From: Candidatus Nanohaloarchaea archaeon
GTDB taxonomy: Archaea > Nanohalarchaeota > Nanosalinia > Nanosalinales > Nanosalinaceae
DNA length: 64,000 bases
Assembly: GCA_042218075.1 (NCBI GenBank)
Contig: JBDGRK010000018.1
Location: 32,001-96,000, forward strand
Reading direction: 5' to 3'
The notes below the pieces were generated by a model, which was given only the letters and a program-made list of their open reading frames with translations, was not told where the DNA came from and searched no databases. The position numbers and the translations under genes are program-made. Each line of letters begins with the position of its first letter. Within the stretch, counting starts at the first letter, position 1. Below, piece after piece: positions 11,473 to 22,283 of the stretch.

Positions 11473-12852
11473 TCAGAGATTCGGCCTCCAGACCGACGTG
11501 TTTTCCAGTAGTTCGATATCATTCCTGTAGAGTTCCCTGACATCTTCAAGACCGGCTGATCTCATCGCAATCCTTGGAATTCCAAGTCCCCAAGCCAATA
11601 CCGTAGCCTCGAATCCTAACATGGGTTTTACCACCTCAGGCCGGAACATGCCTGATCCGCCGAGACCTATCCATTCCTTTTCCTGGGAATCCCAGACCTG
11701 GACTTCCACGCTCATCTCGGTGTAGGGGTAATAGCTGGGGATAAGCCTGAATTGATCGTATCCCATCTTTTCAAAGAACTGGCTCAAATAGGCCTTAAGA
11801 TTCACGAAGTTTAGATCTTCTCCCACCACAATACCATCCGACTGGTAGAACTCAGCATTATGATAACGATCAATAGTTTCATTCCTGAAAACTCTTGAAG
11901 TAGTGAAGAACTTGGCCGGAAGATCTTTCTTCTCAAGTTCCGCAAGTTTCTGCGCCGAGACACCTGTAGTATGAGTCCTTAAAACATTTCTTGAAGCCTC
12001 CTTCTCCGACCAATCATATTCCCATCCAGAGCTTCCGGTCTCCCAGCCGTTCTCATGAGTTTGCTTTACTCTTTCAACGTAGTCTCCCTGCTCTGACAGA
12101 TCTGATTTCTCAGGCTTTTTCATAAAGAATGTGTCCTGCAACTCTCTTGCCGGGTGATCCTGCGGTATGTAGAGCGAATCAAAGCACCAGAAGCCCGGCT
12201 GAATGAAGGATCCTTCCATTTCTTTGAATCCCATTTCCCTCCATGTTTTGTTTGCATATTCTATTATCTGCTTGTAGAAGTGCTTCTTTCCCGTCCTGGG
12301 CGTCTTAGTCCTCGCCTCAACGTTGAAATCTTCTTCTATCTCATCCGGTTCTATCTCGTCTCCTCTCTCCGAAAGCAGAAGCTCTCTCCTGGTGGCTTTC
12401 TCAACCTCAACTAGCCCTCTTTCCTGAATCTCTTCATCAAATTCTCCTTCCTCCAGCCTCTGCCGGGTAACATCTTCAGCATCTTCACCTGGTTCAGTCA
12501 GGTAAACTTCTCCTTGGTCGACTTCCACCCAATTCTTCTCACGGGCCTTCCCGAGCGCAACGTCCAGTTCGAGATTTTCAAGCTCCGAGAGTTGTTTCTC
12601 GCCTCTGCTGACCCTCTCCACCAGCCTGTACTCCGGCGACCCTTCTTCAACTATCTCCTCTCCCTCACCTGTTAGTTCGTAGCCGATAACCTCTTCTTCC
12701 TCGACTTCTACAAGATCTTTCTCCTCCAGTTCTAAAGCCGCCCTGTTAACCATGCTCTGGTCGTATCCCATTGCTTCAAGGTCCTCTACCGTAAGTTCGG
12801 AGTGATCCTTGAGCTCTTCCAGGATCTGGATGGCCTGGGAGGAAAGCCTCAT
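11473..12852 (-). CDS. pheS: Phenylalanyl-tRNA synthetase alpha subunit
   Basis: PQDHPARELQDTF, LRTHTT, FRNETID, GMFRPE; ATG 12852 follows SD GGAGGTG. Confidence 0.96.
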   Translation of the reverse strand: MRLSSQAIQILEELKDHSELTVEDLEAMGYDQSMVNRAALELEEKDLVEVEEEEVIGYELTGEGEEIVEEGSPEYRLVERVSRGEKQLSELENLELDVALGKAREKNWVEVDQGEVYLTEPGEDAEDVTRQRLEEGEFDEEIQERGLVEVEKATRRELLLSERGDEIEPDEIEEDFNVEARTKTPRTGKKHFYKQIIEYANKTWREMGFKEMEGSFIQPGFWCFDSLYIPQDHPARELQDTFFMKKPEKSDLSEQGDYVERVKQTHENGWETGSSGWEYDWSEKEASRNVLRTHTTGVSAQKLAELEKKDLPAKFFTTSRVFRNETIDRYHNAEFYQSDGIVVGEDLNFVNLKAYLSQFFEKMGYDQFRLIPSYYPYTEMSVEVQVWDSQEKEWIGLGGSGMFRPEVVKPMLGFEATVLAWGLGIPRIAMRSAGLEDVRELYRNDIELLENTSVWRPNL

Positions 12853-12972
12853 GCGTGCACACCTCCGGAGTGAAGCTTTAATAACCCGGCCTGTATCCAA
12901 AAATCTATAGCTGAGTCCGAATAGAAATTTTCAATACTCGAAAAAACGTCCACCCTTCAAAGACAGACTCAT
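12849..12972 (-). promoter_or_regulatory. pheS leader: uORF MSLSLKGGRFFEY* with candidate +1 shift site CGT-TTT-TTC
   Basis: uORF 12972-12931; +1 frame open 30 codons to a TGA overlapping the pheS ATG; TATA-like CTTAAG at 12995-13000. Confidence 0.7.
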
Positions 12973-13010
12973 GAAATACTTATGAAAACAAAAACTTAAG
13001 TAGATTGGCT

Positions 13011-13772
13011 CTATGCAGTCTCGATTACCGCCGCAAGTAGTATAAGGCCTAGACCCAGGGACACCAGCTTTAGATAGTCGATCCAGGTGTCTCTCTCGAA
13101 GTGCTTTCTGTAGACCGCTGCGGAGATCAGAGATCCTGAAACACCCGCAACTATGAACCCTAACATCTCAAGTGTAGCATGTGGGATATAAACCACGGAA
13201 TGGGCTGCAGACAGTTTCTTGGCTAAGAATCCCATGAATGTTCCTAGAACCGATGCGTTCCATACAAGTATGAAGGCTCCTGAAGAGCTTATTACGGCTG
13301 AAACAACGAGGATTATTCCAAAGACCAGTAAATTATTGATCAAAACCGATAGAAAAGCTGAAGGCGATGCTGCAGACCCGGTCACGACTGCCTGGATACT
13401 TGAACCTCCAATAGTAGAAACTCCTAGCGACTCTAACTGGGCTGCATACTGTGAGACCTGTATTGAAAGGTTCTCCGGCGAAACCAGTATCGCTAGAAGG
13501 AAGAAAGCCGCTACCTCACCCAGGAACAGCGAGCCGTATATCCTGATCTCCTCAAAATGAGGTCTGCCATCCTCCCTTTCATCCTCCAGGAAAGTTCTGG
13601 TGAGGGGATAAAGGAGAGGAATAGATGCGAAAACTACAGCGAGAATCGATACATCCGAGGGAAAAGCAACGGTCGCGGCAATGTATCCCAACAGTCCGGA
13701 TGAAAGTCCGAGCAGTGCCAGCAAAATGTAATTGTCCTGCTTTCCCTCCCTGTAGATCAGCTCCGGAAGCAT
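13011..13772 (-). CDS. SpoIIM/DUF95-family membrane protein
   Basis: Multi-TM; INN, WNASVLG, PHATLE and AAVIE motifs. Confidence 0.8.
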   Translation of the reverse strand: MLPELIYREGKQDNYILLALLGLSSGLLGYIAATVAFPSDVSILAVVFASIPLLYPLTRTFLEDEREDGRPHFEEIRIYGSLFLGEVAAFFLLAILVSPENLSIQVSQYAAQLESLGVSTIGGSSIQAVVTGSAASPSAFLSVLINNLLVFGIILVVSAVISSSGAFILVWNASVLGTFMGFLAKKLSAAHSVVYIPHATLEMLGFIVAGVSGSLISAAVYRKHFERDTWIDYLKLVSLGLGLILLAAVIETA

Positions 13773-13850: not shown

Positions 13851-14165
13851 GTGATCGGAATGGGAAGCACTCTCACCGCCAGAGTATCGGACGAGTTGAA
13901 CGAAGCCCTCGACAAGATCAGCGAAAAGGAAAAACTTGAGAAGAGCGCTGTAGCCAGGAGATTTCTGGAGAAGGCGGTTAAAGATTACCGTATGGATAGA
14001 GCACTTGAAGAGTACAGTGGAGGAGAAGCAACACTTAGAAAGGCGGCTGATACAGCTGGCGTCAGCCTGTGGGAGTTCATGGAGAGAGTGAAGCAGGAGG
14101 GAATCAAGCTTAACTACACGGAAAGAGACCTGGAAGAAGACTTGCAGGCTGTAAAGAATGAATAA
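13851..14165 (+). CDS. UPF0175-family putative antitoxin
   Basis: RHH-like N-terminus, ATLRKAADTAGVSLWEF; overlaps PIN gene. Confidence 0.8.
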   Translation: MIGMGSTLTARVSDELNEALDKISEKEKLEKSAVARRFLEKAVKDYRMDRALEEYSGGEATLRKAADTAGVSLWEFMERVKQEGIKLNYTERDLEEDLQAVKNE

Positions 14166-14673
14166 AGCTGTAGCCGATGCCACGGTGCTGATCTACCTCG
14201 CGAAGTTGGACAGGCTAGAAGTTCTGCTGGACGAATTTGAGAGAATACTTGTGCCGGAAAAGGTGGAGGAAGAAGTTATTGATGGAGGCAGAAAGGCAGG
14301 GAGGGAAGACTACCTGAAGATAGACAGCTTCATGGAAAATGACGAAGTGGAGCTAAATGAAGCAGAAATACCTGAAAAGGCGGAAAGACTTGGTATGGAG
14401 CCGGGAGAGAGATCTGTCCTGTCTCTGGCCCTGAATATGGATGTGAATGTCGTACTCGTTGATGAAAGCAGTGTCAGGGAGGCGGCTAAAAGTCTTGATC
14501 TAGAGCCCAGGGGCACCCTATACCTTCTGCTGAAACTGGTTAGAAGAGGAGAGATAGATTTCGAGGGTTTCCTGGATATCATGGACAGGCTAACCGAATC
14601 AGGTTTTTACCTGGATGAAAGAGTTTACTCGAAAGCAGTGAGAGAAGCCAGCAAACTGGACTCTACAACATGA
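14158..14673 (+). CDS. DUF3368-like PIN-domain protein (putative toxin)
   Basis: VADATVLIYL, GERSVLSLA, VLVDE, PRGTL. Confidence 0.8.
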   Translation: MNKAVADATVLIYLAKLDRLEVLLDEFERILVPEKVEEEVIDGGRKAGREDYLKIDSFMENDEVELNEAEIPEKAERLGMEPGERSVLSLALNMDVNVVLVDESSVREAAKSLDLEPRGTLYLLLKLVRRGEIDFEGFLDIMDRLTESGFYLDERVYSKAVREASKLDSTT

Positions 14674-14674
14674 T

Positions 14675-15778
14675 TTAAACCGAAAACTCCAGCTCTTCCT
14701 CCACGTACTGCTCGACTCTCGGCGCTTTTTCTTCTCTTTTCTGCTGGTGTTCATTCAGGAACTCCTCCATTTTCTGCCTGGCGATCTGCTTGAGTTCACC
14801 GGAAAGCATTTTCCCGCTCGAGTACTCCTGCTTGATTCTCTGGAGCTCTGAATCATCCTCTACCAGGTGGAATGTCAGAAGCTCGAAAACCATATCTTCA
14901 GATAGATCGGCTCCCTTTTTCCTGTGTTCTTCAACGGAATCCTGTCCCCCGGTCTTTGCTTCATCGATCTTCTGCTTCGCCTCCTCGATCGAATCCGTGA
15001 GCGCGATATAGCTCTTTGGGTCGCTGCTCGACATCTTGCCTCCCTGAAGGCCTCTCATGAACTTGTTGTAGGTGGAGGAAGGCTTCACGAAATCCTGCCT
15101 TCTGTACTTCGATGCGACCTCCCTTGTCAGCCTGATATGCGGATCCTGGTCCAGACCGACCGGAACAACTGTAGGTTTCGGACCTCCGTTCTCCGGGAAC
15201 TGTGGCCTCAGGATGTCAGCATACTGCGTGAGGGCCGAGGCTATCTTGCCGGGTTCCGCGTTTCCGTATGTTGCCTCCATTTCATTCTGCGTCAGGTGCT
15301 TGGCAAACATTTTGGATCTCGCAAGGTGGTCGTTTCCAGCCTGGCTCTGGAAGTAGAAATCCACGCTCTCAATATCAATCCCCAGAGCCGCATAATTCTT
15401 CAGGTACTGCTCCACCACCATCTCTCTCGCCTCTTCAAACGATATGTCTCGAGTATTATAGGATTCAATGTCCGCCGCCGCGATCGTGACCTCTGCACCC
15501 ATCTGCTGGTACATCTTGATCTGGTCGACCACGCACTTGTGGCCGAAGTGGAAGATTCCGGAGGGCATTATACCGGTGATCATCGCAAAGTCCTCTCCAT
15601 CCTCTTTCGCATCGAGAAGCACATCCAGGTCCCGGTGGCCGAAGACAATATTCCTCCTGATGAACCTGTGGTCCGGCATCCGGTCCTCTACTTCCTCTAT
15701 AGGCTCGATACCAAACTTCTCCATCTTCTCTCGATAGTTTCCAATCTCAACATCTCCCCAAGGATCGATCTCAGGCAT
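14675..15778 (-). CDS. trpS: Tryptophanyl-tRNA synthetase
   Basis: TGIMPSGIFHFGH, VPVGLDQDPH, KMSSS. Confidence 0.96.
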   Translation of the reverse strand: MPEIDPWGDVEIGNYREKMEKFGIEPIEEVEDRMPDHRFIRRNIVFGHRDLDVLLDAKEDGEDFAMITGIMPSGIFHFGHKCVVDQIKMYQQMGAEVTIAAADIESYNTRDISFEEAREMVVEQYLKNYAALGIDIESVDFYFQSQAGNDHLARSKMFAKHLTQNEMEATYGNAEPGKIASALTQYADILRPQFPENGGPKPTVVPVGLDQDPHIRLTREVASKYRRQDFVKPSSTYNKFMRGLQGGKMSSSDPKSYIALTDSIEEAKQKIDEAKTGGQDSVEEHRKKGADLSEDMVFELLTFHLVEDDSELQRIKQEYSSGKMLSGELKQIARQKMEEFLNEHQQKREEKAPRVEQYVEEELEFSV

Positions 15779-15782
15779 TTTG

Positions 15783-16880
15783 TCAACCTCTTACTTCGAT
15801 TTTCTTCTCTGTAAACTTTTCAAGCTTCTTATGATTGATTTTTGACTCAAATTCTGGATTTGAAGGTATCTCGATATGGCCATTCTTCATCTCTGGCTTA
15901 TCCATAATAGTTTCTCTGAAGTATCTCGACTGCGGAGCTATATCCGAAGGATGTGCAACCTGGCTCATGCTTGCAGCAGCTAATTGGTACATGGCGCCGA
16001 TACCTGATTCAACCAAGCCCCCTATCCATAGATCAATATCTTTCTCTTCGCATATGGAGTTTATCTCCTTCGAGGCTTGAATGCCTCCTACTCTCTGAGG
16101 CTTCAGATTGATTATACTACAGGCATCAAGCTTAGAAGCTCTTCTTACATCCTCAGGACTTCTTATACTTTCATCCAGACAGATAGGAGTATCTAAATCC
16201 TGAGAAAGAATGGAGTGATTCACGATATCTCTGTGGCCGAGAGGCTGTTCAATCATCTGAAGATTAAACTCGTCAAATTTCTGAATCCTCTCTCTATCTT
16301 CAAGATTGTAGTTCGAGTTCGCATCCACCATCAGATCATAGTCAGGAAATTCGTCCCTCACAGCTTTGACATACTTGACATCGTTACCAGACCTGATTTT
16401 TATTTTAGCCCTAGAATACCCCTTTTTCCTGTATTTTCGAACCTTATCAACGAGTTGTTCAGGATTTTCCTGTATTCCTATACTTACACCACATTCAGCT
16501 CTTTCTTCCTCTCCTTCAAACAGTTCAGAGAGATTTTTCTCTTCCTCGATCATTTTCCTGTTATGAAGAAGCATTTCACCTGCAGACTTAGCCATCAGAT
16601 TGCCTTTATACCCGGAAATTGATTCTCGATATTCCTCTATAGATTCAGCATTTCTTATAGCAGGTATAGCGAATCTTTCCATAAACTCAATTACAGCTTC
16701 CGTATATTCATGGTTATAGAGAGGAGCGAACTGAGCAGAAGCCTCACCATAGTAAAATCTCTCATCGTCAAAACACATCAAAATCACTACTTCTCTGTTC
16801 CTAATCTCTCCAAAACCAGTCTCAAAAGGATTCTTCAAGGGAAGCTGGACCTTTCTAATCTCGAATTTCTCAAAATCCAT
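15783..16880 (-). CDS. OSBS/N-succinylamino acid racemase (enolase superfamily)
   Basis: PFETGFG, KIK, DANS, EQPL, LDES, NLKPQRVGG. Confidence 0.85.
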   Translation of the reverse strand: MDFEKFEIRKVQLPLKNPFETGFGEIRNREVVILMCFDDERFYYGEASAQFAPLYNHEYTEAVIEFMERFAIPAIRNAESIEEYRESISGYKGNLMAKSAGEMLLHNRKMIEEEKNLSELFEGEEERAECGVSIGIQENPEQLVDKVRKYRKKGYSRAKIKIRSGNDVKYVKAVRDEFPDYDLMVDANSNYNLEDRERIQKFDEFNLQMIEQPLGHRDIVNHSILSQDLDTPICLDESIRSPEDVRRASKLDACSIINLKPQRVGGIQASKEINSICEEKDIDLWIGGLVESGIGAMYQLAAASMSQVAHPSDIAPQSRYFRETIMDKPEMKNGHIEIPSNPEFESKINHKKLEKFTEKKIEVRG

Positions 16881-17931
16881 CAGAGACCTCCTCCAAGAAG
16901 GTTTGCAAGATTTTACAGTACTGTTCCATACTCTCTATCTCAACGTATTCATTCTCGCCGTGGAGATCGTATCCTTCAGGGCCGAAACAGACCGCAGGTA
17001 TTCCTCTCTCCGTGAAGAACCTCATGTCACTGGCAAAGTTTTCTCTTCTGAAACCTGCTTGACCTGAAACCTCTTCAGCAGAGCTCCTCAGACCCTGTAC
17101 AAAGACATTATCTTCATCCGCCTCCATCATCGGAGCTTCTTTCAGGATCTCTGTATCAATTCCTTCTATACCTTCAATGTCCTCCAATACCTGATCTCTC
17201 GGATATTGATTTGAGAAACGTATATCGAGCTGTACAGACGCCTTATTCGGAATTTTGTTTACAGGACCTTCTGAAGAAATTTTTCCAAGGTTGATAGTGG
17301 TTGAAAAATTTTTTTCGTGGTCGAAGTTTTCCCTGATTTCCTGGTATTTTTCCAAAAGTTTTTCTGCCGCGTTTTCACCTTTCTCCGGTTTTGATGAGTG
17401 CGCTGATTTTCCTTCAGTCGAGATTTCCAGCTGTAGCACTCCCTTCTGCCTGGTTACTATGGAGGGAAAGCTTCCTGAATCATCAGGCTCACCGGATACA
17501 ACGAACTCGGGCTCGAGATCGGCCTCATCGATCACATAGCCTGTGCCGTTAAATCCTCCTCTCTCCTCATCTGAGGTCAAGAGAAGTGCGACATCTTCAT
17601 CCTCTAACCCCTCCAAAACTTTCATCATGCAGGCCACGCCCGACTTCATGTCAGCAGCACCTCTCCCATAGATTCTGCCGTTTTCTACCTCTGGTTCGAA
17701 AATTTCGTCTTCTGCTCCGATCACATCAAGGTGGCCATGAAGAAGTATCCGGGGGTTTTCACCCCTTGAGATCAGAACAGATTTCTCATCATTTTTCTCG
17801 AATCGCTGAAAATCTAGCCCGGAATCAAGCTGTCCTTCTATGTAGTTCAGACAGTTTCCGAGTTCCTGAGCGTTTCCTTCAACGGTTTTGAACCGGATAA
17901 GATCTTTCGTGGTTTCCTCAACGGTTTTCAT
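16870..17931 (-). CDS. M20 metallo-amidohydrolase (ArgE/DapE family)
   Basis: HGHLDV, YGRGAADMK, DEE, GEP, C-terminal HGENE. Confidence 0.9.
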   Translation of the reverse strand: MKTVEETTKDLIRFKTVEGNAQELGNCLNYIEGQLDSGLDFQRFEKNDEKSVLISRGENPRILLHGHLDVIGAEDEIFEPEVENGRIYGRGAADMKSGVACMMKVLEGLEDEDVALLLTSDEERGGFNGTGYVIDEADLEPEFVVSGEPDDSGSFPSIVTRQKGVLQLEISTEGKSAHSSKPEKGENAAEKLLEKYQEIRENFDHEKNFSTTINLGKISSEGPVNKIPNKASVQLDIRFSNQYPRDQVLEDIEGIEGIDTEILKEAPMMEADEDNVFVQGLRSSAEEVSGQAGFRRENFASDMRFFTERGIPAVCFGPEGYDLHGENEYVEIESMEQYCKILQTFLEEVSDGF

Positions 17932-18705
17932 GCTACTCTCTCACCGTTTTCCCGGAACTCGTAGTCTGAGGCTCGGGCTGCTTTTGCTAGGCTTTGTGCA
18001 GCATCTACTTCGGAAACTTCTCCTGCCACTACTATTGCATCTCCATCTTCGAAGGACATATCTAGGCCTTCTTCTCCATACATGAATTCTTCAAATTTAT
18101 CGTTGGGAGGAACTTCCGAGTACATACCTCCGTCGTATATATCCGCGTAGGCTTCCCTCATTACTGCTCCATCCATTTCCTTGCTTGGATTAATCTCATT
18201 TCCCAAAGCCTGAATTTCCTCCATAATTTCATCGTCTTCTCTTTCAGGATGCGGGTAAAACTCGAAACAGTTGTCGGCGCACTGGACCATATCGGGATTC
18301 TGAGTCCTGTAACCTACCAATTCCTCTCCATCAGCCAACTCCATTACTCCCCTACTCAGCAGTGTGCTTCCTACACATCTGCCCTGTAAATGATCACTTA
18401 CGGCTAGTCCCTCCTCATAGATCGCATCAGCCTTCTTGGAGACACCTGAAAAGGCCACATACTCGCCGCTCTCATCCTTCGCAGTGATTAAGAGAGGAAC
18501 ACGCAGATGAGCCTCGGCATCCTCTTCAGTAGGAACACCTTCCTTGGAGAAAGCATCCTGCGCCACATCAACAAGCTGGGACTCAGCCTCAGGATTCTCA
18601 TCCAGAAAACTTTCAGGATTTTGATAAACCTCTATCTCAAGGCTGTTTCCAAAAGCGTCCACCCTTCGGGGCTTCCGCTGTACCGTAGTCTTCTTGTGCT
18701 TTCAT
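17928..18705 (-). CDS. GNAT-like acyltransferase, probably expressed via a +1 frameshift near 18652
   Basis: LAVSDHLQGRCVGSTLL acetyl-CoA motif; ATG 18705 frame (MKAQEDYGTAEAPKGGRFWKQP*) joins the main ORF by +1 at TTT-TGG; GTG 18662 is the alternative start. Confidence 0.65.
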
Positions 18706-18803
18706 AATCAAATCACGTAACCAAACATAGTCACAAAAACCTTAAAAAGGTTCTCAGATGGTAAAAGAAAAATTGGTTATAGCTGAGTCTATTTCAGCGT
18801 AAA

Positions 18804-18951
18804 TTAAAAGTTTAGATTCAGTCTTGGATCCAGAAAAATCTTGAGAACTAAATACCATGAGAAATTCTTGATGGAAGAAATTCGGACGTAACTACGACTG
18901 ATTAAATCAATAGATACAGCGGGTCCAAAAACATCCACCTTTCAGCCGCAT
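18804..18951 (-). promoter_or_regulatory. Upstream Trp leader: uORF MRLKGGCFWTRCIY* with shift motif TGT-TTT-TGG
   Basis: uORF 18951-18907 after TATA-like TTTTTAAG (18973-18980); +1 frame open 40 codons to TAA at 18804. Confidence 0.6.
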
Positions 18952-18981
18952 ATTAAATATTCCAAGAGAAAGCTTAAAAAT

Positions 18982-19743
18982 TCACTCCCATTCCATCTTC
19001 TTGGCCTTGTGACCCAGCATGCCATCGTAGCCTGAAGTCGACATCAGGACAGGATAGAATTCCTTCTCAGCTCTCATCTCTTCACTCTCTCCTCTCGCGA
19101 AAACTTCTCCTTTATCGACCTTCTCAAAGTTCTCCGCTACAAACTCCCAGTCGCCCATCACTGTTCCTATCCTCTTGAAATGTTCTGGAGAGGAAGTCTC
19201 GAACTCCTGTTCTATCACACCCTCGGATGCTAGAAAGTTCTTCATCACCCTATAGGCGTTCTCCGCAGCTTTTCCGGTTCCCTGCTCACCGGCTTCAAGA
19301 GTAACTCCATCTACTTGCTCATTCAAAGCTCCTACACTCACAGGAAAATGGCACGAATAATCAACCCCTGTCGATTCAATAAGCGATCTGACCTCAGTAT
19401 TCTTCCTGCTGTGGTTTGCAAACGGTCTATCAAACGATTTTGTCGAATGGACGTCGAGAACCTTCGTGCCTTTGACTTTTTCTAGTATTTTCGCCGCGAG
19501 CCTCTCCTCGTAATTTTCAGAATCTAAATTGCCGGGAAAAGACCTGTTAAGATCCACTTCAGTGAACCTCTCTCCCTTTTCTAGAGCTCTTTGATTCGCT
19601 ACCAGGAACTGGACGGGTTTCCTGAACTCCCACTCCTTGTCGAGGAATCTTTCAATCGCCTCCTTGCCGCAGGGCTCGTCACCATGTATGCATCCCGATA
19701 CCGTGTACTCTGGATTTTCTTCTCCCCTTCTTTCTACTCTCAC
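18982..19743 (-). CDS. Succinylglutamate desuccinylase/aspartoacylase family protein
   Basis: IHGDEPCG, DLNRSFPG, LDVHST, TLEAG. Confidence 0.88.
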   Translation of the reverse strand: MRVERRGEENPEYTVSGCIHGDEPCGKEAIERFLDKEWEFRKPVQFLVANQRALEKGERFTEVDLNRSFPGNLDSENYEERLAAKILEKVKGTKVLDVHSTKSFDRPFANHSRKNTEVRSLIESTGVDYSCHFPVSVGALNEQVDGVTLEAGEQGTGKAAENAYRVMKNFLASEGVIEQEFETSSPEHFKRIGTVMGDWEFVAENFEKVDKGEVFARGESEEMRAEKEFYPVLMSTSGYDGMLGHKAKKMEWE

Positions 19744-22135: not shown

Positions 22136-22283
22136 ATGAAAGGTGAATATTTTGGATTGTCGCAGGTTCCATCTGGAAGCTGCGTTGAGAAGCAGAATTC
22201 CTGCTTCGAATCGGCGATCAAGTAAAGTTTCTATAAAACCAGCTGTAGCTATAAAAACTTCTTCTCCGAGTGATTCTGCATGA
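22136..22283 (+). promoter_or_regulatory. glyS leader: 29-aa uORF MKGEYFG... with candidate +1 shift site TAT-TTT-GGA
   Basis: uORF 22136-22225; +1 frame open 42 codons to TGA 22281-22283 overlapping glyS ATG 22280; TATA-like ATTTAA at 22103-22108. Confidence 0.68.

Follow-up and report, generated by a model that had tools for sequence, protein, structure and literature searches.

How does a ribosome reach a gene when the reading frame that leads into it is not the gene's own? On the minus strand of the window analyzed here (the whole stretch of 64,000 nucleotides from contig JBDGRK010000018.1 of a Candidatus Nanohaloarchaea archaeon), a short open reading frame (ORF) begins at ATG 18705 and ends at 18637, inside the start of a gene for a GNAT acyltransferase that is open in the +1 frame. 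Written out, the short frame is ATG...AAG GGT GGA CGC TTT TGG AAA CAG CCT TGA, and the break between the two frames falls on a 15-nt element, here called a head, that ends in the tryptophan codon TGG. A second head, with a mini-ORF and a +1 ORF of its own, lies upstream in cassette A; the cassette at the GNAT gene is cassette B. In this paper, we ask what such heads do, and we argue that they probably let the ribosome itself gauge the supply of charged tRNA(Trp). The features of the two cassettes are these, with codons named by the ribosomal site that they would occupy and Shine-Dalgarno abbreviated as SD:

18973 to 18980, minus strand: TATA-like box TTTTTAAG of cassette A, its first base 29 nt before ATG 18951
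18907 to 18951, minus strand: frame-0 mini-ORF of cassette A, MRLKGGCFWTRCIY and a stop
18925 to 18939, minus strand: head A, GGTGGATGTTTTTGG, with SD-like GGUGG, E-site UGU, P-site UUU and sensor UGG
18804 to 18938, minus strand: +1 ORF of cassette A, a small protein of 44 codons
18763 to 18772, minus strand: T-tract TTTTTCTTTT between cassettes A and B
18741 to 18748, minus strand: TATA-like box TTTTTAAG of cassette B, 43 nt before ATG 18705
18712 to 18716, minus strand: SD-like GUGAU, 6 nt before ATG 18705 and kept in orthologous loci
18637 to 18705, minus strand: frame-0 mini-ORF of cassette B, 22 codons, MKAQEDYGTAEAPKGGRFWKQP and a stop, ending KGGRF-W-KQP-stop
18649 to 18663, minus strand: head B, GGTGGACGCTTTTGG, the proposed +1 shift site, with SD-like GGGUGG (18659-18664), E-site CGC (18655-18657), P-site UUU (18652-18654) and sensor UGG (18649-18651)
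17928 to 18662, minus strand: GNAT acyltransferase ORF, 244 codons, in the +1 frame relative to ATG 18705

A preliminary description of this stretch had claimed just such an arrangement, a short frame from ATG 18705 ending W-KQP-stop with GNAT in the +1 frame, and the letters bear it out. GTG 18662, which sits within the GGT-GGA of the short frame, is the sole canonical GNAT start near the conserved N-terminus; the first in-frame ATG comes about 106 codons into the ORF. The window has two copies of a 16-nt motif covering the head, GGTGGAYGYTTTTGGA, both on the minus strand (18648-18663 and 18924-18939); the rest of the 1.1-Mb genome has none, and in 100 shuffles of the window the mean count was 0.13, with two copies reached in one shuffle. 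Around the cassettes (18400-19200), an Rfam scan with E up to 10 gave three noise hits and no T-box, and a tRNA scan of the window found three ordinary tRNAs, none near the frame break.

As 28-32 nt is the TATA spacing expected for leaderless archaeal mRNAs, the TATA-like box of cassette A, with its first base 29 nt before ATG 18951, predicts that the cassette A transcript is leaderless; that of cassette B predicts a leader of about 12 nt. The T-tract between them may serve transcript A as an archaeal terminator. In cassette A, the small +1 protein, whose gene has its own TATA-like box and a T-tract downstream, ends in a motif close to Y.xISS[VI]KxxSW in most of 35 aligned peptides (the Trp is invariant, the middle variable), and third-position variation suggests that it is protein-coding.

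Is the break real? The preliminary description argued against a sequencing error. Contigs of a second study cover both motif copies (X2 record 3, 18587-18792; X3 record 7, 18590-18700; X3 record 8, 18851-19035), and because they show no difference, gap or indel in heads A and B, sequencing error is excluded. Orthologues, the check that the same description had pointed to, keep the break as well. A six-frame search of 41 genomes found the GNAT protein in seven, the genome of the window included, and the whole two-cassette arrangement is retained in the four best homologues (77, 73, 39 and 35% identity). Their first cassette has a frame-0 ORF such as MAQKGGRFW... with a small ORF in the +1 frame; in the second, some 250-330 nt further on, the frame-0 ORF ends in ...GGR[F/V]W plus a few codons, and GNAT follows in +1. 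At 36 and 27% identity, the two weakest homologues are without cassettes, and one of them begins at an ATG that aligns right after the motif. Because these homologues do without it, the head is an add-on to the GNAT gene, outside the enzyme proper.

Heads ending in UGG are spread widely through the phylum. Their 15-nt consensus is GGUGGA-YGY-KUU-UGG, and the pattern GGTGGAYGYKTTTGG, with one mismatch allowed, occurs in 54 of 70 genomes of the order and phylum; exact copies are mostly same-strand pairs, 240-340 nt apart. Our census holds 78 heads at 40 loci, a chance match within a long ORF (L078) having been dropped beforehand. An in-frame ATG of its own precedes 74 of the 78, at a distance that varies from 1 to about 25 codons with the frame always kept, and the remaining four share the frame of the +1 ORF of another head, some 58 nt upstream, thus forming cascades (L043, L044, L046 and L068); at a fifth cascade, L063, the second head has its own in-frame ATG. 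Frame 0 stops 0-17 codons past the UGG in every one of the 78 (median 5), and the +1 frame stays open for 21-710 codons. What the +1 ORF of the second cassette encodes varies by genome (GNAT, TrpD-like, aminotransferase, M20 peptidase, inositol-monophosphatase-like, GCS2-like ligase), and in some cases it is a short peptide of 31-63 codons, not conserved, that runs up to the next gene.

Positions 2-4 of the head are GTG in 76 of the 78 and GGG in two. One GGG head stands in cassette A of a complete genome, where frame 0 (MAQKGGYFW) and the conserved small +1 protein are both intact. The other, likewise with frame 0 intact, lies in the second cassette of L044 (1141-1230); there, seven G in a row interrupt the +1 ORF once more, beyond which the homologous protein resumes in another frame. 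A pseudogene, a slip in the assembly or another slippery site might account for this second break.

The link to tryptophan is made by the genes downstream. A Pfam scan of same-strand downstream ORFs at 30 UGG loci found trpS or trp biosynthesis genes at 23. Class-I W/Y synthetase genes stand at 21 of the 30, every one of them TrpRS-like (36-81% identity to the TrpRS of the window vs 23-25% to TyrRS); two further loci have trpB/trpA with trpC or trpD, and several of the 21 have, in addition, trpB-trpA, trpE-trpG or a TrpD-like gene directly behind the head. A scan for minimal leaders with the pattern ATGAARGGTGGAYGYKTT across genomes of 185,579 species, for which we calculate about 280 chance matches in 596 Gb, points to where the element belongs: among the 80 matches listed, 17 are from Nanohaloarchaea, Nanohalarchaeota, Nanosalina or Nanohalobium, 2 from Asbonarchaeaceae, 7 from an "uncultured archaeon," and 54 are single matches in assorted bacteria. 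By this distribution, the head is characteristic of nanohaloarchaea.

If UGG stands for tryptophan, do other amino acids have heads of their own? Freeing the bases after the head reveals other frame-0 codons at positions 13-15, and the preliminary description was right that the head is shared with other leaders: in the window, the same head lies before pheS and glyS.

12931 to 12972, minus strand: frame-0 ORF of the Phe sister leader, MSLSLKGGRF-F-EY-stop, with its head at 12940-12954
12849 to 12953, minus strand: +1 bridge ORF of the Phe leader, 34 codons, its TGA overlapping the pheS ATG (12850-12852) as ATGA
22136 to 22225, plus strand: frame-0 ORF of the Gly sister leader, MKGEYF-G-..., with its head at 22142-22156
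22143 to 22283, plus strand: +1 bridge ORF of the Gly leader, 46 codons, its stop overlapping glyS ATG 22280 as ATGA

Since the Phe bridge ends in ATGA on the pheS ATG, pheS starts at ATG 12852, with GGAGGTG 7 nt before it, and not at the TTG 12900 of the ORF list. Elsewhere in the same genome, MKGGRF-T precedes thrS, ...KGGRF-V valS, MKGGRF-Y tyrS and MKGGRF-S serS; two or three Pro heads precede proS; MKGDCV-H stands before an operon that ends in hisS; and MKGGRF-I is followed by an IlvA-like threonine ammonia-lyase (362 bits, just below the cutoff of 379). Four other genomes follow the same rule (Cys with cysS, Tyr with tyrS, Val with valS, Gly with glyS, Thr with thrS, Ser with serS). Where a head lies directly before a synthetase gene, its +1 ORF ends within 13 nt of the gene's ATG in 21 of 21 cases, nine of them ATGA overlaps; 13 of these 21 genes are named by NCBIfam, and the other 8 were recognised by N-terminal likeness only. 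Heads can also be chained. On contig C40 (about 12540-13050, minus; L245), three Pro heads follow one another, each in the +1 frame of the head before, and the final +1 ORF of this triple cascade (102 codons) ends in ATGA on proS. On C36 (about 64171-64240, minus; L243), one frame-0 ORF, MFHKALSTAPTGEYF-V-QGGCF-I-QGGHV-L-LG and a stop, carries Val, Ile and Leu heads in tandem, 18 nt apart; the genes downstream of it got no family name. Relaxed head patterns without GGTG gave, in this genome, only false positives within genes.

A sister family of the same order (L020, L023, L024 and L025) has a Cys leader, MKGG[RC]V-C with 5-6 more Cys codons, lying 60-250 nt before a tRNA-Cys(GCA) gene, with an ORF further downstream whose N-terminus looks CysRS-like. 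Its +1 frame runs right through the tRNA-Cys gene, staying open for 68-123 codons, and two of these loci hold a partial copy of the tRNA-Cys 5' half.

Which frame is used, and what happens at the P site? For this, we took 54 heads from five genomes, using search patterns that left positions 10 and 13 open (one row from the genome of the window, on C40 with P-site CTT, was dropped). Every one of them keeps the +1 frame open for 26 codons or more (median 39). The median for +2 is 12, and +1 outlasts it in 52 of 54. TATA-like 5-mers peak at -32 to -28 from the frame-0 ATG, with a minor peak at -42/-41; with the main peak at 28-32 nt, it is therefore frame 0 that is offered to the ribosome. The choice of P-site codon goes with the base that opens the sensor: it is UUU before 9 of 9 sensors beginning with A and 12 of 12 with G, before U it is UUU in 16 and GUU in 3, and before C it is GUU in 13 and UUU in 1 (Fisher's exact 6.6e-9, although related genomes are not independent). 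By family, Leu, His, Pro and Arg heads use GUU, and the ten other families use UUU. UUU_C would be avoided because tRNA(Phe) could slip onto UUC, its better codon, at any time, an avoidance that we can explain only if re-pairing in the P site matters. Perfect +1 re-pairing is possible at C-UUU-UGG, here and in 65 of the 78 UGG heads, the other 13 carrying GUU. As a general rule, UUU_U re-pairing was rejected: the restriction to U-first sensors vanished once position 13 was freed.

The 16S rRNA of this genome ends in ...GGAUCACCUCC, with which GGGUGG (18659-18664) can form six pairs, two of them G-U, ending 4 nt before the UUU. The rare head variants GGUGA and GGGGG keep or improve this pairing, yet alter the amino acid in both frames. 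As for the tRNAs themselves, the genome (92% complete) has no match to PF08608, the wyosine-forming Taw1 domain, a search in which the Haloferax control was likewise silent; because of this, tRNA(Phe), the usual P-site tRNA of the heads, may be without wyosine. A Trm5/TYW2-family gene lies on C15 (46583-46888). Aragorn reports only 12 tRNAs in the genome; the anticodon loops of three (ctac, tgcc, ga) are odd, and these are probably misparsed intron-bearing genes.

What we propose is a programmed +1 frameshift like that of release factor 2 (RF2), triggered by a slow-to-decode sense codon—in other words, a tryptophan-sensing recoding leader—and from these comparisons we hold it to be the probable explanation. 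Translation would begin at ATG 18705 through its own GUGAU ribosome-binding site. At codon 18, peptidyl-tRNA(Phe) would sit on UUU in the P site with UGG, presumably decoded slowly, awaiting in the A site, while GGGUGG, four bases upstream, would pair with the 16S 3' end in the geometry of the bacterial prfB (RF2) site. With charged tRNA(Trp) plentiful, Trp would be inserted, and the ribosome would stop three codons later. With charged tRNA(Trp) scarce, it would move one base forward (UUU_U to U_UUU), read GGA and go on as MKAQEDYGTAEAPKGGRF-GNSLEIEVY... to make the GNAT enzyme, a product in which MKAQ...KGGRF is joined directly to GNSLEIEVY and whose tryptic junction peptide would start FGNSLEIEVYQNPE..., preceded by ...KGGR. 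Recoding on tryptophan starvation was the preliminary description's idea too. All of the comparative tests that were run fit a Trp-codon sensor, and from them we infer the shift; simple re-pairing of the TTT-TGG kind fails for some of the sister leaders.

Behind the GNAT gene, three more follow on the same strand.

16870 to 17931, minus strand: M20 deacylase of the ArgE/DapE family, below NCBIfam cutoffs, its start overlapping the GNAT stop by 4 nt
15783 to 16880, minus strand: enolase-superfamily enzyme of the NSAR/OSBS type (TIGR01928, 278 bits, above cutoff), overlapping the M20 gene by 11 nt
14675 to 15778, minus strand: trpS, tryptophan--tRNA ligase (NF008925, 433.7 bits), 4 nt after the preceding gene

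The GNAT of the window, taken alone, falls below its Pfam cutoff (17.4 vs 20.7 bits); 8 of 10 members of its family match PF00583 (best E 3.3e-9), its structure model (pLDDT 78, a model-confidence score) finds only GNAT enzymes among its top PDB matches, and the enzyme is probably an amino-acid N-succinyltransferase. That model shows residues 1-4 as disordered and the first strand from residue 7 on. A set that converts D- to L-amino acids, as outlined in a preprint (bioRxiv 10.1101/2022.03.03.481873), consists of a GNAT succinyltransferase, an NSAR/OSBS enzyme and an M20 desuccinylase, and all three families are encoded together in this operon. Because the set lies under a Trp sensor and ahead of trpS, it suggests that the operon salvages L-tryptophan from D- or N-acyl-tryptophan. 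The preliminary description had the head gating all of the genes down to trpS. The tight packing of the four (a 4-nt overlap, an 11-nt overlap and a 4-nt gap) stands, and translational coupling from GNAT through the M20 deacylase and the NSAR/OSBS-type racemase to trpS is what we would expect of it; a shift would then switch on a probable D-to-L tryptophan salvage operon together with trpS. Beyond trpS, two small overlapping ORFs on the opposite strand (13851-14673, plus) separate it from the SpoIIM-pheS-pheT genes, which adjoin trpS in most relatives; by eye, the pair looks like an antitoxin and a PIN toxin.

A larger view follows the same logic, and we lean toward it, if with less assurance: Nanohaloarchaea, and perhaps many Archaea, would have a genome-wide system in which at least 13 amino acids are each gauged by a frameshift leader of their own (GGUGG, YRY, NUU, cognate codon) that delivers ribosomes to the matching genes. 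The +1 slip, taken singly or through cascades of two or three heads, would bring the ribosome to the start of a synthetase, biosynthesis or salvage gene.

What, then, weighs against a frameshift at a sensor codon? Some heads break the match of codon to gene: Leu heads (L203, L210 and L214) precede glutamine-amidotransferase-like or unnamed genes, one Lys head (L219) stands before endonuclease V, one Phe head stands before an unnamed gene, and 7 of the 30 scanned UGG loci have no trp or trpS gene in the scanned stretch, 3 of the 7 being cut by the end of a contig or stretch. Re-pairing is imperfect for GUU heads and for sensors beginning with A or G (UUU to UUA or UUG, two of three positions). 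The bridges use codons for the sensed amino acid about as often as expected (119 observed vs 115.9 expected) and so show no avoidance of it. The GTG within the UGG heads is almost invariant, and the head makes better chemical sense when read in +1 (V-D-[A/V/M/I]-F-G) than in frame 0 (G-G-[R/C/Y/H]-[F/V]), as expected if the +1 frame is translated from GTG on. GNAT might, that is, simply start at GTG 18662 (product (M)DAFGNSLEIEVY..., N-terminus MDAFGNSLE), and the ATG frame would be an overlapping upstream ORF whose Trp codon modulates GTG initiation or mRNA fate, with no frameshift at all. The preliminary description had set this start against its own proposal, and there is more to be said for it: GTG is kept in all true heads of the genome of the window as well as in 76 of the 78 UGG heads, V-D-[A/V]-F-G is conserved, with position 7 (C or T) synonymous in +1 while it swaps Arg and Cys in frame 0, and the disordered first residues of the model would make a short MDAFG extension harmless. 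We nonetheless disfavor it and think it unlikely. A ribosome stalled at UGG would cover the GTG, 8 nt upstream of the P-site codon, so that starvation would repress, which is the wrong sign for trp biosynthesis genes. Moreover, the GTG has no ribosome-binding site of its own and in minimal leaders is only 7 nt from the leaderless 5' AUG, the codon is never ATG and in two heads is GGG, and the tracking of the sensor's first base by the P-site codon is left unexplained.

A short leader ORF with a codon cognate to its operon is also how trpL and pheL are built, so a bacterial-type attenuator has to be considered, in which the pause at the sensor codon alters RNA folding or termination and the open +1 frame is incidental. 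The T-tract between the cassettes would suit it, as would the Cys leader of the sister family, whose 6-7 Cys codons precede a tRNA gene that needs no translation. Yet five leaders fold no better than shuffles (z -1.07, -1.17, +0.37, +1.44 and -1.03), runs of five or more T are not enriched in bridges (14 of 50 vs 11.4 +/- 2.8 in shuffles), Rfam offers no match beyond noise, and the account gives no reason for an invariably open +1 frame that finishes on the start codon of the synthetase, or for the in-frame chaining of heads; we consider it quite improbable. (SD-sequestering hairpins in the bridges were likewise rejected, as folds no better than shuffles.) Conservation at the nucleotide level, third codon positions included, and a fixed position relative to the TATA box in minimal leaders could instead speak for a DNA operator, or an RNA site for a trans-acting factor, just past the transcription start, with the frame features secondary. 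An operator has no reason to be followed by three bases that spell the downstream gene's amino acid in at least 10 families, nor to keep frame over its varying distance from the ATG, and we would be very surprised if this were the answer. Sequencing error or a decaying pseudogene, which the bare frame break alone might have suggested, we credit with next to no probability: the second-study contigs are identical, the break persists in dozens of genomes and in four orthologues, the least similar at 35% identity, and the downstream ORF is intact with a predicted GNAT fold.

How does the proposed leader compare with what is known? The bacterial prfB site reads AGG GGG UAU CUU UGA C, with 3 nt between SD and P-site codon. 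The nanohaloarchaeal heads likewise place an SD-like stretch 3-4 nt before an NUU P-site codon, with YRY in the E site and then a presumably slow A-site codon; frame 0 ends early, and the product would restore decoding in the A site, a negative feedback. Three hallmarks of the RF2 type are found here, a 16S-complementary SD, an A-site codon tied to the gene and an early frame-0 stop with a +1 product ORF; for another, a P-site tRNA able to re-pair in +1, the heads give a mixed picture. A general account of the autoregulatory prfB shift is given in a review (PMC5009743). Unlike prfB, these leaders are archaeal, with an A-site codon that is a sense codon read by aminoacyl-tRNA rather than a stop read by a protein factor; they form a family with a different codon for each amino acid, they can be chained two or three in series, and their +1 frame is often a mere bridge ending on the start codon of a separate gene.

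In bacteria, the leader-peptide attenuators trpL, pheL and thrL carry cognate codons in a tiny ORF, through which the ribosome senses charged tRNA. The nanohaloarchaeal leaders share that tiny ORF and would share that sensor; they differ in usually having one sensor codon, in showing no detectable alternative hairpins or terminator and in a readout that seems to be a change of frame. T-box riboswitches stand before aminoacyl-tRNA synthetase genes of Firmicutes, and here, too, each synthetase or biosynthesis operon has a cis element to itself, whose "specifier" codon fits the amino acid; unlike a T-box, the head has no structured tRNA-binding RNA and no Rfam match, and its codon would be read by a translating ribosome. 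(GGGUGG resembles the T-box sequence, a likeness that no test supported.) To our knowledge, Archaea have no T-boxes, and how they match the expression of synthetases and amino-acid pathways to the supply of charged tRNA is, as far as we know, largely unknown. Also related are hungry-codon frameshifting (Gallant) and the yeast Ty1 site CUU_AGG_C (both in PMC5009743), of which the former cases, unlike the leaders described here, are laboratory starvation effects, and the latter is a gene-expression device of a retrotransposon. As that review puts it where it treats the subject, no natural trans-frame products specific to starvation frameshifting are known, and a 2021 review (PMC8211752), in its listing, has a single proven archaeal frameshift, a -1. 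Our literature search, at the level of listings and abstracts and with subscription journals outside its coverage, found no description of such leaders and no established leader-peptide attenuation for Archaea. A family of amino-acid-specific charged-tRNA sensors controlling archaeal synthetase genes thus has no described counterpart there, while the element itself would work like a prfB site.

If this is true, hungry-codon frameshifting would have its first natural regulatory use, and Archaea would have their counterpart of T-boxes and attenuators. The element is compact, 15 nt long and easily mutated, and its amino-acid-specific prediction is built in, which makes the idea directly testable. 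It also matters for annotation, since gene finders miscall the products and starts of such genes, pheS being one example. For the organism, the proposal would mean a D-to-L tryptophan salvage pathway induced by tryptophan starvation and a conserved small protein made only by recoding, and it points to the salvage of tryptophan from D-amino acids in a host-dependent symbiont.

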